Counted from the stretch's first letter, positions 34,586 to 40,403 are shown. The stretch is 54,255 bases of DNA from Candidatus Uhrbacteria bacterium (GCA_903843045.1 CAIMOJ010000027.1:1-54255), one strand, 5' to 3'. Numbers and translations: made by a program. The notes: generated from the sequence alone by a model not told the origin.

Positions 34586-34614
34586 TTGACACTTTCCTCC
34601 AAATGTGATATTCT
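34586..34614 (+). promoter_or_regulatory. Promoter of MopE-motif gene 1
   Basis: TTGACA-N17-TATTCT with TG extension; about 220-nt structured leader follows. Confidence 0.75.
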
Positions 34615-34838
34615 CCGACCTTGCTAATCGTTCTTTCCCGTTGCCTCGATTGGCCCGACGTCTCCCTGGCACACCTCCTCCTTGTGCCAGGATCGGACGC
34701 CGGACCAATCGACGCCGCGGGGAATCCTCTTCCGCACGTCAACAAACCCCGGTAACACGGGGTGCAGCGACGCGCGGGGATGGTCCTCGCACGTCAAACA
34801 CCCCGGTGCAAGCCGGAACCCCAGCCAGGAGATCAACC

Positions 34839-36233
34839 ATGACCCAGACCCTCAAGACCAACGGAGGCTCCATGAGCCAGATTTCTTTCCTCGCCCTCGT
34901 GGGCGTTCTCGTCAGCACCCCGGCGTTCGCCGTCACCCCCTGCGCCCCGGTCGCGCCCTGCAAGTCGGCCCCGGTCGTCGAGCCCCTCAAGGACTGCGGG
35001 GCCGCGAACGACGAGCTCTGCACCGAGGCGACGGACGTCGACAAGGACGCCTACTACAGCGACAGCAAGTCGCGCCTCGACTGCGACGACACCAAGGCGA
35101 CCGTCCACCCGACCGCGACCAGCGTGATCGGCGACGGCCTCGACAACGACTGCAGCGGCGACACCGACGACGAGGAGCTCGCCGCGGCGCTCATCGCGGC
35201 CGGCGGCGAAACCAGCCCCGCGGGCATCGCGCTCGCGAAGGACATCGACTCGTGCTGGAACAGCACGGTCGTCGGCGCGGAGGACGCGTACTGGTCCAAG
35301 GGGTCCAAGAAGCCCTGGACCTGCAACGGCCTGGCCGACGGCCTCTCGTTCGAGCGTGGAAAGGGTGTCCTGACCGAGACCCAGACCCACGACCTCGAGT
35401 CCGCCCGGCGCATCGCCGGCGACCGCGCGGTGGCCGCCAAGGCGAAGGCCGAGGCCGAAGCCGTGATCGCGGACGCGAAGGCGACGATGAAGGCCGACGT
35501 GGACGCCGACAAGGCGTACTTCGCGGAGCTGATCTCGCAGAGCGAGGCGACCGTTGTCGAGCTCAGCGCGAAGATCGACGCGTACGATGCCCGGCTCGCC
35601 CAGTTCGAGCTCGACGCGAAGCACGCGGCCTCCCTCCAGAAGGGGATCGACGCGCGGCAGAACGATGCCATCGGCGCGAACACCGCCGACATCGGCGACC
35701 TGCAGCGGCGTGGCGTCATCTTCGAGATCGGCGCCGGCGCCGGTTTCCTCGCCCAGCGCTCGCTGGTCGATGCGGACGGCACGGTCTACCGCAGCGGGAT
35801 GGTCGGCTTCGGCAACGTCGTCGCCAGCATCGGGTACGGGATCCCGAACGCCAGCCTCACCCTCGACCTGAGCTTCGGCGAAGGGTCGACGGGGAGCCTC
35901 GGCGGGACGGTCCCCGACACGGTCGCCTCGGCGGCGGTGGTCGGCCAGTACCGGCACGGCGACATGGCCATCGGTCCGATGCTCACGCTCAGCAGCAGCG
36001 CCACCGGCAACCCGCTGGACTCGGGCGTGAGCGGCTGGGGCCCGGGCATCGGTGCCGCGGCCTCCTGGTTCGCCCCGAACGAGAAGGGGCTGCGGATCGA
36101 GGTCAAGACCCACCTCACGGTCGGTCTCGAGAACTTCGGCACGGACACCAGCCTGACCACCAAGTACTGGGACTCCGGTCTCATGGGCGAGGGCGGCGTC
36201 ACCGTTCTCGTCGGTGGCGGTCCCCGCAAGTAG
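34839..36233 (+). CDS. Secreted protein: one MopE-type metal-binding motif, coiled coil, C-terminal beta-barrel-like domain
   Basis: DCDDTKATVHPTATSVIGDGLDNDCSG; signal peptide ending TPAFA; two in-frame SD-ATG starts (34839, 34872). Confidence 0.75.
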   Translation: MTQTLKTNGGSMSQISFLALVGVLVSTPAFAVTPCAPVAPCKSAPVVEPLKDCGAANDELCTEATDVDKDAYYSDSKSRLDCDDTKATVHPTATSVIGDGLDNDCSGDTDDEELAAALIAAGGETSPAGIALAKDIDSCWNSTVVGAEDAYWSKGSKKPWTCNGLADGLSFERGKGVLTETQTHDLESARRIAGDRAVAAKAKAEAEAVIADAKATMKADVDADKAYFAELISQSEATVVELSAKIDAYDARLAQFELDAKHAASLQKGIDARQNDAIGANTADIGDLQRRGVIFEIGAGAGFLAQRSLVDADGTVYRSGMVGFGNVVASIGYGIPNASLTLDLSFGEGSTGSLGGTVPDTVASAAVVGQYRHGDMAIGPMLTLSSSATGNPLDSGVSGWGPGIGAAASWFAPNEKGLRIEVKTHLTVGLENFGTDTSLTTKYWDSGLMGEGGVTVLVGGGPRK

Positions 36234-36262
36234 GCTCTCCGTGGGTACCCACTCCCACACCT

Positions 36263-36296
36263 CCCCGGCAGTTCATACTGTCGGGGATTTTTCTTT
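36263..36296 (+). terminator. Terminator of MopE-motif gene 1
   Basis: CCCCGGCAG-ttcata-CTGTCGGGG then T-rich run. Confidence 0.7.
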
Positions 36297-36312
36297 CGGG
36301 CTACGGCCCGAA

Positions 36313-36441
36313 GGCTGCGAATAACGTATGAGCTACATATCACACAAATTGTTACGTATTCCTACAAACCAGTGTAATATCAGCATCCGCTGCGATTCGT
36401 AGCAATACGTAGGATGTGCAGCTCATACGTTATTCGCAGCC
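36313..36441. repeat. AT-rich 129-bp element with perfect 22-bp terminal inverted repeats
   Basis: GGCTGCGAATAACGTATGAGCT (36313-34) is the exact reverse complement of 36420-41. Confidence 0.9.
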
Positions 36442-36450
36442 CGTTTTCCC

Positions 36451-36479
36451 TTGACAAATCTCACTATTCCTGCTACAGT
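36451..36479 (+). promoter_or_regulatory. Promoter of MopE-motif gene 2
   Basis: TTGACA-N17-TACAGT with TG extension. Confidence 0.75.
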
Positions 36480-36648
36480 ACGACCTTGCCAGAAATGACG
36501 CGCGAGACACTTGTCGAAAGGACATCAAACCTTTCGCCAGATGCCTCCCGCTTCTCGACGCAATCCCGCGTCTGAAAGTGGGTCCAGTCCGGCTTCCCAC
36601 AAGGGCCGGTTCCCAGCCCTGTGGGGCAACATCACCAAGGAGTCTCGA

Positions 36649-37389
36649 ATGCGCACACTGATCCTTTCCCCCCTGGTCCTCGCGGCCGTCGGCTGCAACC
36701 CTTCCGTCGTCGGCATCAAGCTCGATGACACCGGCTGCACCGGCTGCTCCGGCGACACCGACGCGGATACCGACACCGACACGGACACTGACGCCGACAG
36801 CGACGCGGACACCGACACGGGCACGGCGGACCCGAACGACGTCGACAACGACGGCGACGGTTACACCGAGAACGGCGGCGACTGCAACGACGCGGACGCC
36901 TCCGTCTGTCCCGGCGCGACCGACACCGCGGGTGACGGCATCGACCAGGACTGCAGCGGGGCCGACGCGTCCAGCTCGGATCCGTACGCGGACTACACCT
37001 GGGTCGACGGCGACAGCCTCTGCTTCTCCACGGACGGGTTCAACTTCCCGTACGACGAGGCCGCGGCCTACGCGGTCGGCTACGGCACCGGCATGGACTG
37101 GACCCTCAAGGCCAGCCACGCGGTCTCCCCGGTCGACAGCAGCGACTGCGTCGACACGAGCGCGTGGGAGTACGACACGTACACCATCACCCTGATCTCC
37201 TCGCTGCAGAGCGACGGGTCCCTCACGACCAGCTACGCCGACACCGGCGACTGGTGGGACAACTTCGACTTCTGCACGTCGGGCTTCCCGACGGCGCTGA
37301 GCTTCTGCACCGAGATGGAGGATGGCAACTACCTCGTCTCCGTCTCGAAGACGACGGAGGGCCTCGTCCCCGCGGGCGACGGCTCCTAG
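36649..37389 (+). CDS. Lipoprotein with DT/DA repeats and one MopE-type motif
   Basis: AAGGAG SD; lipobox LAAVGC; DTDADTDTDTDTDAD tract; DCNDADASVCPGATDTAGDGIDQDCSG. Confidence 0.8.
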   Translation: MRTLILSPLVLAAVGCNPSVVGIKLDDTGCTGCSGDTDADTDTDTDTDADSDADTDTGTADPNDVDNDGDGYTENGGDCNDADASVCPGATDTAGDGIDQDCSGADASSSDPYADYTWVDGDSLCFSTDGFNFPYDEAAAYAVGYGTGMDWTLKASHAVSPVDSSDCVDTSAWEYDTYTITLISSLQSDGSLTTSYADTGDWWDNFDFCTSGFPTALSFCTEMEDGNYLVSVSKTTEGLVPAGDGS

Positions 37390-37505: not shown

Positions 37506-37540
37506 GCTCCTCGCCCACCGCGGGAGCTCTTTTTTATTTT
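37506..37540 (+). terminator. Terminator of MopE-motif gene 2
   Basis: GCTCC...GGAGC stem then T-rich run. Confidence 0.6.
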
Positions 37541-37553
37541 GCTACGGCAAAAT

Positions 37554-37721
37554 TTGCGAATAACGAATTAGTTACTTATTACACATATGCAACGTATTGG
37601 AACGAATGGGTACAAATTCGTCCGTTCGTTTTTTCGTTCTCGCGTCTTTCCCGTTCGAATACGTAGCATCTGTAGCAATACGTTGCATATGTGTAATAAG
37701 TAACTAATTCGTTATTCGCAA
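37554..37721. repeat. AT-rich 168-bp element with perfect 46-bp terminal inverted repeats
   Basis: 37554-37599 is the exact reverse complement of 37676-37721; 76-bp spacer. Confidence 0.93.
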
Positions 37722-37778
37722 CCCCGCCCCCTCCAACCCCTATCTTTTCTCCCCCCAACATGCTATCCTCCCCCAGTT

Positions 37779-40403
37779 ATGCCTCTCTTCCCCCCACAAC
37801 TCCTCCGAGAAATCGCAACCCCTGAGTCTTTTCGACGTGGGAAGACGTACGTGGAGGATGGCGCGGTTGAGAACGTGGAACTGTCGCGGACGGCTTCGGG
37901 GAAGATCAAGATCACGGGGACCGTCTACGGCAGCGTCTCGTATCACACGAGCATGATCGTGGACGGCGACGCGTTCGAGGTGGAGTCGTACGACTGCGAC
38001 TGCCCGTATTCGCAGGGCGGGGCGTGCAAGCACGTGGTCGCGCTCGGGCTCGTGGCTGCCCGTCGGTCCGTCGTGCCCGAGAAGGCGCCGCCGACGCGAA
38101 CGTCGAAACTGTCCGCGGCTGATGCCGATCTCCTTGAGACGCTCCGTGCCCACGCGGCAAAGCGAGGGGTCGTGCTCGACGACGTGAGCGCGGCGAAGGC
38201 GGCGAAGCACCTTGAGAAATTGCTGGTGACCCATGGGTCCGGAAACGTCTCGGCTTCGCGGAAGCCACCGCAGGAATACGTGCTCGGACGCATCGAGCTC
38301 TCGTTTTCGTATAACCGCGTGAAGGACCTGATCCTCGCAAAGGCCACGGCGGCATACGGTCCGCTTGTCTATCCGGTGGAGACCGGATGGCCGGTGGAGG
38401 GAGAAGAGGACGGAAGGCACGTGGCGCTGCGCGACTGGCACGAGGAACGGTCGGCACGCGTGGCGCTTGAGAACGAGGGATTTTTCTCGATGGGGAAGGG
38501 GACGTTCGAGCTGCCGGCCGAGGAGGCATTTGAGTTTTTGCGCGACGGGATGTCGCGGCTTTCGGAGACGTACGCGATTCTGGTCGACGAGGCATTCCAG
38601 TCATTGTCGACGATCCGCACGGCCGAGGTTACTTCGGACTGGGACTTTGGCGAGTCGTCGGGGACGGACTGGCTTTCGTTCTCCGTCGATTGGAAGTGCG
38701 GCGACCGTCCGCTGACCCCCGTCGAAATTTCCGGACTCGCTTCGGGCTACGGGAAATTCATCCGCGCGGCCGACGGGTCGTTCGTGGAAATTTCGAACCA
38801 GGATCTCATCCGCCGCATGGCCGAGGTGGCGGACGTCACTGGCCGCCAGACGATCACGCGCGCGCGGGCGATCGAGCTCGCGCTGCTTGCGGGCGAGACG
38901 TCCGGGATTCGAATGCGCGAGACGACCGAATCGATCGCGTCGTTCCTTCGCGATGCGAAGGAAGGGAAGCTGATCGGGGATCCGGAGATTCCAAAGGCGA
39001 TCGGCACGGTTCTTCGGCCGTACCAGCGCGATTCCGTCGCATGGGCATTGTTTTTGAGGAAGTATCGCTTCGGAGGGGTTCTGGCCGATGACATGGGCCT
39101 TGGAAAGACGCTTCAGGCACTTGCGATCATCTCGACGGAACGCGTGGCCGGGACGCCGCCGTCGCTTGTCATTTGTCCGAAGACGCTGATCTCGACATGG
39201 GTCGCGGAGTCCAAGCGGTTTACGCCGGACCTCAGGGTCGTCGCGGTCGAAGGAAATGCAAGGGAGCGCAAGGCCGTTCTCGAGCGCGCGGCGTCGACCG
39301 ACCTGTTTGTCACGTCGTACTCGCTTTTCCAGCGCGACGCGAAGCTGTATCAGAAGATCCCGATGCACTACGCGATTCTCGACGAGGCGCAGTATGTGAA
39401 GAACTCGAAGACCGCGACCGCGCTTGCCGTCAAGACACTGAAGGCAAGCCACCGGCTGGCGCTGACCGGAACCCCTCTGGAGAATGGCGTTCACGAGCTG
39501 TGGTCGCTCTTCGATTTCCTGATGCCGGGACTGCTTGGTGATCAGAAAATGTTCAAGACGACGTTCGAGCGGCCGATCAAGGAGTTCGGCGACAATGAGA
39601 GGCTTCAGACGTTGAAGCGTCGCGTGAAGCCGTTCCTCCTGCGTCGCACGAAGGAATCCGTGGCGCCCGAGCTGCCGCCGCGCATCGAGCAGAACGACTG
39701 GTGCGAGCTGACGGAGGTTCAGGCGTCGCTGTACGCGGAGGTGCTGGCTTCGACGCGACGCGACGTGTTCGAGGCGGTCGAGAAGAAGGGGTTCAACCGG
39801 TCGCGCATCGAAATTCTGGCCGCGCTGACGAGGCTTCGACAGGTGTGCAACCATCCGGCTCTGGTCGACAAGCGTTTGTCGAAGGGGGAGGACGTTTCGG
39901 GAAAATTGGCGTACGCGCTCGAGCTGCTTCGCGAGGCGGCCGACGGAGGCCACAAGGTCCTGTTGTTCAGCCAGTTCACGAGCATGCTCGACCTGATTCG
40001 TCCGGAACTCGACAAGATGGGAATCGGCCACGTGACGATCGAGGGAAAGACCAAGGATCGCGCCGGAGTCGTCGATCAATTTCGTAACGACCCGACCAAG
40101 CACGTTTTTCTTCTGTCTCTCCGCGCCGCCGGAACGGGCCTGACCCTCACCGAGGCCGATACCGTCGTCCTCTACGATCCTTGGTGGAACCCGATGGTCG
40201 AACGCCAGGCCATGGATCGCGCGCACCGCATCGGCCAGACCAAGTCCGTGAACGTCCACAAGCTGGTGACGAAGGGAACGATCGAGGAAAAGGTCCTTGC
40301 GCTCCAGGAAAAGAAGAAGGCGATCTTCGATGCGGTCGTTTCGGATTCCGCCGAGGGGTTGAAGGGTTTGACCTGGGAGGACGTGCAAGTACTTTTCGCT
40401 TAA
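37779..40403 (+). CDS. SWIM zinc finger plus SNF2-family helicase/ATPase
   Basis: CDCPYSQGGACKH (SWIM), LADDMGLGKT, ILDEAQYVKN, ALTGTPLEN, LFSQFT, AAGTGLTLT, QAMDRAHRIGQ; TGcTATCCT-N9-ATG. Confidence 0.93.
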   Translation: MPLFPPQLLREIATPESFRRGKTYVEDGAVENVELSRTASGKIKITGTVYGSVSYHTSMIVDGDAFEVESYDCDCPYSQGGACKHVVALGLVAARRSVVPEKAPPTRTSKLSAADADLLETLRAHAAKRGVVLDDVSAAKAAKHLEKLLVTHGSGNVSASRKPPQEYVLGRIELSFSYNRVKDLILAKATAAYGPLVYPVETGWPVEGEEDGRHVALRDWHEERSARVALENEGFFSMGKGTFELPAEEAFEFLRDGMSRLSETYAILVDEAFQSLSTIRTAEVTSDWDFGESSGTDWLSFSVDWKCGDRPLTPVEISGLASGYGKFIRAADGSFVEISNQDLIRRMAEVADVTGRQTITRARAIELALLAGETSGIRMRETTESIASFLRDAKEGKLIGDPEIPKAIGTVLRPYQRDSVAWALFLRKYRFGGVLADDMGLGKTLQALAIISTERVAGTPPSLVICPKTLISTWVAESKRFTPDLRVVAVEGNARERKAVLERAASTDLFVTSYSLFQRDAKLYQKIPMHYAILDEAQYVKNSKTATALAVKTLKASHRLALTGTPLENGVHELWSLFDFLMPGLLGDQKMFKTTFERPIKEFGDNERLQTLKRRVKPFLLRRTKESVAPELPPRIEQNDWCELTEVQASLYAEVLASTRRDVFEAVEKKGFNRSRIEILAALTRLRQVCNHPALVDKRLSKGEDVSGKLAYALELLREAADGGHKVLLFSQFTSMLDLIRPELDKMGIGHVTIEGKTKDRAGVVDQFRNDPTKHVFLLSLRAAGTGLTLTEADTVVLYDPWWNPMVERQAMDRAHRIGQTKSVNVHKLVTKGTIEEKVLALQEKKKAIFDAVVSDSAEGLKGLTWEDVQVLFA

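Follow-up and report, generated by a model that had tools for sequence, protein, structure and literature searches.

The AT-rich palindrome at positions 36313–36441 of the window, which is the whole 54,255-nucleotide stretch of Candidatus Uhrbacteria DNA analysed here, is almost certainly a copy of a dispersed repeat family and not a dedicated promoter element. The best explanation, to which we attach a probability of about 60%, is that it represents a gene-less hairpin copy, of subfamily B, within a nuclease-linked family that resembles the REPIN-RAYT system with another enzyme. The copy is most likely neutral or selfish DNA, and no regulator of the adjacent MopE-type gene. The window is contig C27 of a CPR genome (G000; 1.28 Mb, 61% GC, 96% complete); contig names given below without a genome are those of G000.

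Structure and setting of the hairpin

The features of the region, with their window coordinates and strands, are as follows.

34605..36233, plus strand: upstream gene with a MopE-type metal-binding motif (Pfam PF11617, E = 1.3e-8)
36262..36297, plus strand: intrinsic terminator that closes the upstream gene, with a stem of 11 pairs and then TTTTTCTTTC (terminator scan; kept in genomes G003 and G001)
36295..36312, plus strand: small hairpin TTCGGGC-TACG-GCCCGAA, which includes CTACGGC and precedes the left arm (fold)
36313..36359, plus strand: left arm of the B-type hairpin, with phased 10-nt units; the perfect part, 36313–36334, is GGCTGCGAATAACGTATGAGCT
36360..36394: hairpin loop of 35 nt, with no counterpart in other copies
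36395..36441, minus strand: right arm of the same hairpin, perfect over 36420–36441
36451..36479, plus strand: sigma-70-type promoter TTGACA-17-TACAGT with TG before the -10, belonging to the downstream gene and lying outside the element
36649..37389, plus strand: downstream gene with a MopE-type motif (Pfam PF11617, E = 2.5e-7)
37536..37553, plus strand: small hairpin ATTTTGC-TACG-GCAAAAT before the sibling element, identical in G003
37547..37728: sibling element, A type, with arms at 37554–37608 and 37667–37721 (55 nt, 93%)
37779..40403, plus strand: SNF2-family helicase gene (Pfam PF00176, E = 2.3e-72), used as a synteny anchor; the G003 protein is 99% identical

The first-pass annotation had described perfect 22-bp inverted arms, and the complement between 36313–36334 and 36420–36441 was confirmed; with mismatches admitted, the arms extended to 47 nt at 83%. 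The 129-base palindrome folded as RNA with an energy of -77.4 kcal/mol (z = -10.1) and as DNA with -38.8 kcal/mol (z = -9.3), both z-scores being relative to shuffled sequence. The GC content of 36300–36499 was 0.46, and that of the flanking genes 0.66–0.75. A scan of the region against Rfam returned two sub-threshold chance matches, both located outside the hairpin.

The same annotation had connected this palindrome with a second one at 37554 by means of common sequences, and these observations were borne out. Each of the four arms carried the terminal TGCGAATAACG at its end, and these were its only occurrences in the window; 0.8 were expected, and a count of four was reached in 0 of 100 shuffles. 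The internal GTAGCAATACGT was present at 36399 and 37672. These were its only two copies genome-wide, and it corresponded to one phased inner unit read on the other strand; it is a variant of that unit and no hallmark of the family. CTACGGC was located upstream of both elements (36301–36307 and 37542–37548), each time a little 3' of a terminator T-run. The right arm stopped 9 bp short of the TTGACA that opens the promoter-like site at 36451–36479, again as described. The two elements are therefore related members of one family, and they fall into two subfamilies whose arms differ symmetrically. The loop of the sibling element contained, at 37599–37632, a terminator-like hairpin of its own followed by a T-run (GGAACGAATGGGTACAAATTCGTCCGTTCGTTTT TTCGTT).

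A dispersed family of paired and solo arms

The first-pass annotation had made its family claim depend on further members, and such members were found throughout the genome. There were 37 exact occurrences of TGCGAATAACG in G000, and BLAST searches with the two window copies identified 32 loci; overall, the family occupied ~31 loci. A signature scan recovered ~49 true arms, comprising 25 of A type, 13 of B type and additional variants. These were arranged as ~18 inverted pairs (108–195 bp), ~13 solo arms (~60 nt) and two longer units. Within each arm, the unit nnnnACGnAT was repeated five times at a helical phase of 10 nt, which put AC at positions 8, 18/19, 28, 38 and 48, and a conserved end, GGGG(C/T)TGCGAATAACG, preceded the array of units.

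The 25 subfamily A arms (GCGGGGT-TGCGAATAACGAATTAGTTACTTATTACACATATGCAACG...), which include those of the 37554 element, were 95% identical to each other, and the 13 subfamily B arms with their variants (GGGGC-TGCGAATAACGTATGAGCTACATATCTTACAAATTGCTACG...), which include those of 36313–36441, were 85% identical. The B consensus agreed with that of the A master in its inner units and in its GGGG-TGCGAATAACG end, and differed from it symmetrically at about a third of 45 positions. An additional arm type, D (TGGATACGAATCTACGAATTGGCTACGAAAC...), was detected as eight matching stretches at six loci of G000.

Type D loci, by match to TGGATACGAATCTACGAATTGGCTACGAAAC:
G000:C6:5542
G000:C50:24840-24930
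G000:C40:3041
G000:C26:18541-18670
G000:C25:27274
G000:C18:2120

It had been proposed that each copy keeps its own symmetry through covariation. This held between subfamilies A and B, and failed copy by copy within a subfamily. The identity of B arms to their own partner was 0.848, compared with 0.846 to other copies (303 of 2000 shuffles were as high), and the corresponding values for A arms were 0.954 and 0.954. An arm thus resembled other copies as much as it did its own partner, which gives no sign of copy-level compensatory change, and covariation as a mark of selected structure is confined to the subfamily level. The symmetry of the hairpins is handed down from source copies.

The small TACG hairpin ahead of the left arm was considered together with the T-runs. 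Six of the seven sites in G000 with a T-run and a C(YRCG)G hairpin were directly before an arm of the family, the loops of these small hairpins being TACG, or TGCG, CACG and TTCT. The module CGGGC-TACG-GCCC-TCYGT recurred at unrelated sites of G000 and G003 and was absent from the matching empty sites, which indicates that it arrives with the insert. The small hairpin might also arise by inverted copying of host flanking sequence. This fitted 37536–37553, where the hairpin mirrors the host T-run, and failed elsewhere; as a general rule it was dropped, since CGGGC-TACG-GCCC turns up at unrelated sites and is missing from empty ones. Arms abutting start codons proved uninformative, as the background is 35% in the GC-rich G000, and only the association with T-runs stands.

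That association, in which 11 of 47 arms lay just after a T-run compared with 2.6% of random positions, could be explained by a host-useful RNA structure of the kind suggested for certain REP sequences, which might block 3' exonucleases, give rise to a small RNA or serve as a back-up terminator. The very stable hairpin (-77 kcal/mol), followed by CGUUUUCCCUU, agrees with such a role. However, as predicted from the terminator and promoter signals, the 36313–36441 copy sits in an untranscribed gap; with a complete terminator upstream of it and the next promoter downstream, it is expected to be rarely transcribed. The absence of an Rfam match and of copy-level compensatory change also argues against an RNA function, as does the finding that solo arms, which cannot form the hairpin, were as conserved as pairs (for example C50:9658). 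We regard the RNA structure as quite improbable.

The family was restricted to the genus. Among 41 relatives, BLAST detected it in four congeneric genomes only, with many copies in G001 and G003 and traces in G002, G006 and G008. When 185,579 species-representative genomes were scanned for the exact pattern, multi-copy matches came from three Uhrbacteria MAGs only, and the same kind of scan of a metagenome collection gave one locus, the orthologue of the C50 solo arm.

The 36313 site in sister species

The cross-species comparison covered metagenome-assembled genomes of three to four species, and G003 was compared in nearly complete form (38 contigs, 1.18 Mb). Genome-wide identity was 92–93% between G000 and G003, its closest sequenced relative, 86% between G000 and G001, and 85% between G001 and G003. 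At the 36313 site, where the flanks of G000 and G003 were about 84–89% identical, both G003 and G001 kept the terminator, the promoter (TTGACA-N17-TACAGT/TACATT) and the downstream gene. Neither genome had the B hairpin or the small upstream hairpin, and a 45-nt solo D arm lay between terminator and promoter in both. With G001 as the outgroup, the D solo arm represents the ancestral state, which gave way to the B hairpin in the G000 lineage. The B hairpin at this site is therefore younger than the split of G000 and G003, and some copying of B went on until recently. Searches for deeper orthologues of the site in G002 and G004–G008 returned only matches to the MopE repeat.

These observations bear directly on the claim that the element has a special tie to the promoter of the MopE-type gene, which could not be upheld. 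A cis-regulatory element of that gene, whether an operator, a UP-like element or an insulator, would be in keeping with the 9-bp distance between the right arm and TTGACA, with two further copies that stop 3–5 bp from TTGAC(A/G) (C24:21431 and C51:979), and with the resemblance of the phased 10-nt units to protein-binding arrays. Nevertheless, the promoter is kept in G003 and G001 without the hairpin, which counts against the regulatory reading: the element was not conserved together with the promoter, and the present copy is a recent replacement in one lineage. Moreover, a consistent regulatory context was not recovered, since other copies were located beside unrelated genes in many contexts, including sites downstream of terminators, gaps from the stop codon of one operon gene to the start codon of the next, and one site beside a tRNA gene. 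A role in cis-regulation is highly improbable.

At the sibling site (37547–37728), G003 had an element at the identical place, with the left junction TTTTGCTACGGCAAAATT|TGCGAA kept. This element possessed its own type C arms and a loop shorter than that of G000. The element was absent from the sibling site in G001. The copy beside a tRNA gene is an A-type hairpin at G000:C26:20771-20934, which abuts the 5' end of the gene on the opposite strand (GGACGCTTAGCTCAGCTGGTTAGAGC...); a C-type hairpin is found there in G003.

A nuclease gene bracketed by the arms

One A-armed unit (G000:C40:6385-6911) carried arms identical at 60 of 60 positions around a 134-aa ORF on the minus strand (G000:C40:6449-6850); the A arms of the dispersed copies are the same as the arms around this gene. 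The ORF matched PF13366 (PDDEXK_3) at 2.7e-28 and TIGR04256 (GxxExxY) at 3.8e-28, and contained the motifs GxxExxY (GQREKYY) and D...ELK. The family to which it belongs, GxxExxY/PDDEXK_3, is very large and listed as being of unknown function (PMC3424549); no sequence relative was found among the solved structures of the PDB. The gene was single-copy in G000, and its locus was the same in G000, G001 and G003. The dN/dS of the nuclease was 0.06, which demonstrates that purifying selection acts on it. The longest frame of the nuclease begins at an ATG inside the arm (G000:C40:6850-6880; CATATGCAACGG...), and an alternative ATG (ATGGGGATCGG) lies just inside the arm boundary.

GxxExxY genes were present in 15 of the 41 relatives. 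The loci examined in these relatives were GxxExxY loci alone, and inverted arms were found on both sides in 20 of 20. The arms were 15–63 nt long and 445–727 bp apart; their sequences varied by genome, and most were built from TACGAAT / TACGGAA / TACAGAT-like units. A B-armed nuclease was not found among these 20 loci or by BLAST of the B consensus against 13 genomes, and the exact-pattern scans, which covered the species-representative genomes as well as the metagenome collection, gave none either. A D-armed nuclease gene was likewise not found in G000. The GxxExxY gene of G006 is flanked by D-like arms.

Other candidate enzymes were also considered. The Y1 transposase (PF01797) was absent from G000, and control genomes gave matches. 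G000 contained three GIY-YIG genes, and the two small ones (C33 and C24) were examined; neither was flanked by these arms. At G000:C33:15000-15900, one tRNA gene is present twice, once in part and once complete, with the small GIY-YIG gene in between; two more repeated tRNA 3' halves follow, each with its own terminator. This arrangement looks like a nuclease-associated tRNA gene duplication.

Replacement of arm types at shared sites

The 31 element sites of G000 were mapped by their 500-bp flanks, and two-sided orthology was obtained for 25. All eight A pairs with two-sided orthology (8/8), together with the nuclease cassette, were occupied in G003, always by type C arms (TGCGAATAACGAATTTGTTACTAAATTGCATATGACACGAAT). 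Orthologous arms at A sites were 75% identical between G000 and G003 (67–78%), whereas paralogous arms were 95% identical within G000 and 90% within G003, and flanks were 92% identical between the species. The loops at shared A sites were also replaced in G003. These results demonstrate concerted evolution of the A sites. The outgroup G001 was A-like at shared sites, and type C is therefore derived.

The nuclease gene itself differed in a corresponding manner. Its core (121 codons) was 74% identical at the nucleotide level between G000 and G003, with a dS of 2.3, and 84% identical between G000 and G001. Sliding identity between G000 and G003 was 92–99% in the flanks of the cassette and went down to 68–77% across the cassette, which shows that G003 has a divergent nuclease-plus-arms allele at the old locus. 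The nuclease allele was swapped in G003, and the dispersed copies in G003 match the arm type of the nuclease cassette of that genome.

At C26:21681 and C27:37547, a truncated left end was common to both species and the interior was different. The retention of truncated ends around a changed interior favours templated conversion over excision and re-insertion. Repeated independent insertion into identical hotspots may be an alternative. Arm type or occupancy differed at further sites, as follows.

C36:1993: A solo in G000, D solo in G003
C51:979: A solo in G000, B-like solo in G003
C3:13910: B solo in G000, C solo in G003
C50:28183: B solo in G000, D pair in G003
C74:52, C50:9658 and C59:2428: B in G000, A-like in G001
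C30:13172 and C26:19586: B pair in G000, D pair in G006, nothing in G003; C30 also empty in G001
C3:4747: B pair in G000, absent from G003, G006, G002 and G008
C40:546: empty in G000, occupied in G001 and G003
C4 unit: A left arm and B right arm in G000, two B arms in G001, same interior without arms in G003

The presence of subfamily B in all three species shows that B is old, and it was more diverged than A. As the C4 interior is armless in G003, it represents resident DNA, and one of the C4 arms has switched type. This interior (G000:C4:13591-13975; G001:C37:1946-2393) contains a basic 49-aa ORF (MSTIALRHHAFTFAFLPVRRVRRFESAMKSLRLRASRRQIKKVIRAMFT), which is kept in three species together with the ~300 bp that surround it. 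The C4/C37 unit had no Rfam match and the 49-aa ORF had no Pfam match. A nuclease remnant in the interior was considered and rejected: tblastn detected none, and the interior was found armless in G003. Several side observations concern neighbouring sequence. In G003 a C-type hairpin (G003:C20:8993-9112) separates a GGAGG ribosome-binding site from its start codon; at G000:C40:540-550 GGAGG and the start codon are 7 nt apart, and the stem in G003 would bring them together again. Another palindromic repeat (AATACTACCAACGCTCGGTGTTGGTAGTACCAACACCGAGCGTTGGTAGTA) is located in G003:C17:4188-4260 and G001:C17 and not in G000 (orthologous C76:29300), and the equivalent spot in G002 and G008 contains different palindromes.

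The presence and absence of copies between species is also what a classical MITE would give. Such an element is an IS deletion derivative that depends on a transposase, of the DDE class or another, acting in trans on its terminal inverted repeats, and the long repeats of this kind, the small size, the AT-rich interior and the intergenic location would suit it. Against this, no convincing target-site duplication was detected at five pairs of empty and filled sites. No clear direct duplication was seen at C30:13172, C11:4189, G003:C20:8993 or G003:C5:35387, and a weak, diverged resemblance (TCATAGGC / TCATTAGTAG) at C3:4747 was the only duplication-like trace. Furthermore, the sole gene between such arms was the GxxExxY nuclease, no arm pair enclosed a transposase-sized unit, and G000 was without a Y1 transposase. 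The ~13 stable solo arms and the site-for-site replacement of type are also unlike MITEs. We consider this origin rather improbable.

A different possibility is that the GxxExxY nuclease serves the host and recognises the arms for that purpose, for example to cut incoming or single-stranded DNA site-specifically as Ssn/NTS does in Neisseria; the hairpins would then have been spread and homogenised by ordinary recombination only. The placement of a gene between repeats, with many dispersed repeats, matches the Ssn/SRM picture (PMC11893778); the nuclease is single-copy, at a fixed locus and under purifying selection; and no transposition scars were found at empty sites. However, the nine testable shared A sites were rewritten in G003, loops included. 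Such site-wide rewriting points to active directional copying, beyond what passive recombination should give. The enzyme folds also differ, being PD-(D/E)XK here and GIY-YIG in Ssn. A host function with passive spread is accordingly judged unlikely.

Proposed mode of copying

Our preferred reading, a nuclease-linked family of hairpins, would operate as follows. The nuclease cassette stays at its fixed locus, and the gene-less hairpins and solo arms reside at intergenic sites of long standing. In a putative series of three steps, the phased-unit arms would be recognised by the GxxExxY nuclease, the nuclease would break the DNA at the arms, and repair from another copy would spread the resident arm type onto older arms. 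Repeated overwriting would then amount to gene-conversion or homing-like copying in which the arm type matches the resident nuclease allele. From the sequence patterns alone, we infer that the nuclease binds or cuts the arms, and that cutting with templated repair is the copier. A small PD-(D/E)XK nuclease would be insufficient by itself for templated copying, and host recombination would be needed. We give even odds to the proposition that the nuclease drives the copying of the arms. The best explanation covers the arms, and the small TACG hairpin module before T-run-adjacent arms falls outside the model.

A broader version, which we advance tentatively and rate at somewhat below even odds, is that the GxxExxY nuclease may be the engine of a REPIN-like overwrite replicator, and that the nuclease allele would determine the sequence of all hairpin repeats genome-wide. 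Under this overwriting scheme, the exchange of the cassette in the sister species would have been followed by nuclease-triggered templated repair that rewrote all shared hairpin sites, as in homing, and B and D would be the fossil populations of lost nuclease alleles. In our reading, the nuclease allele that went with subfamily B has been lost and its arms are fading, or else the A-type enzyme still copies them in trans.

Significance

The genus, small and well sampled, provides a natural experiment, in that three species have common repeat sites and one of them has exchanged its nuclease allele. The exchange was accompanied by a change of repeat at nine of nine testable shared A-type sites, and evidence of the same kind once established REPIN and RAYT as a co-evolving pair. 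The site-by-site comparison of sister species also supplies direct evidence of turnover in the family, and the copy at 36313–36441 belongs to a subfamily (B) without a nuclease of its own. If the model is true, it would add a third independent enzyme solution to one lifestyle, beside the Y1 RAYTs and the GIY-YIG Ssn, and a function would be gained for the very large GxxExxY family listed as unknown. In our literature search no paper tied the GxxExxY family to repeats, and we could not find a published link between a PD-(D/E)XK enzyme and repeats of the REPIN-RAYT or Ssn-NTS kind. For the annotation of reduced CPR genomes, AT-rich palindromes beside promoters or terminators should not be taken as regulatory unless sister genomes have been checked.

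Comparison with known systems

Bacterial MITEs, such as the Correia elements of Neisseria, are intergenic elements of 100–180 bp with terminal inverted repeats. Correia-type MITEs sometimes adjoin promoters, and their presence varies by strain; MITEs produce target-site duplications and come from transposase-bearing IS. The Uhrbacteria family is like them in size, terminal inverted repeats and intergenic place, whereas neither a target-site duplication nor a parent IS was seen for it.

The Ssn nucleases with their NTS/SRM repeats (PMC11893778) are closer in organisation. In both cases, inverted hairpin-forming repeats enclose the gene of a small nuclease with one domain and are also scattered genome-wide, and the two partners, enzyme and repeat, appear to have co-evolved. 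The fold of Ssn is GIY-YIG and that of the Uhrbacteria nuclease is PD-(D/E)XK, and SRMs measure 20–50 nt compared with 45–60 nt for the Uhrbacteria arms. Of the three GIY-YIG genes of G000, the two small ones that were examined lack these arms, which sets the family apart from Ssn/SRM in this respect. Site-specific cutting of ssDNA and an effect on transformation have been demonstrated for Ssn (PMC11893778), whereas the corresponding activity of GxxExxY is a putative one.

The REPIN-RAYT system (PMC3116915, PMC3337134) differs from the Uhrbacteria family in its enzyme, which is a HUH/Y1 transposase in place of a ~134-aa PD-(D/E)XK (GxxExxY) nuclease. REP palindromes are ~20–35 nt long, whereas the Uhrbacteria arms are 45–60 nt with five phased 10-nt units, and REPINs occur in hundreds of copies as against tens. 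The two systems are alike in having dispersed extragenic hairpin doublets and singlets, a single-copy enzyme gene at a fixed locus flanked by matching repeats, and a homogeneous repeat population per genome that follows the enzyme type. The rewriting of the A sites in G003 follows a pattern reported for REPINs, which at conserved extragenic positions are 'overwritten' upon exchange of the RAYT (REPORTH preprint, bioRxiv 10.1101/2024.10.14.618302).
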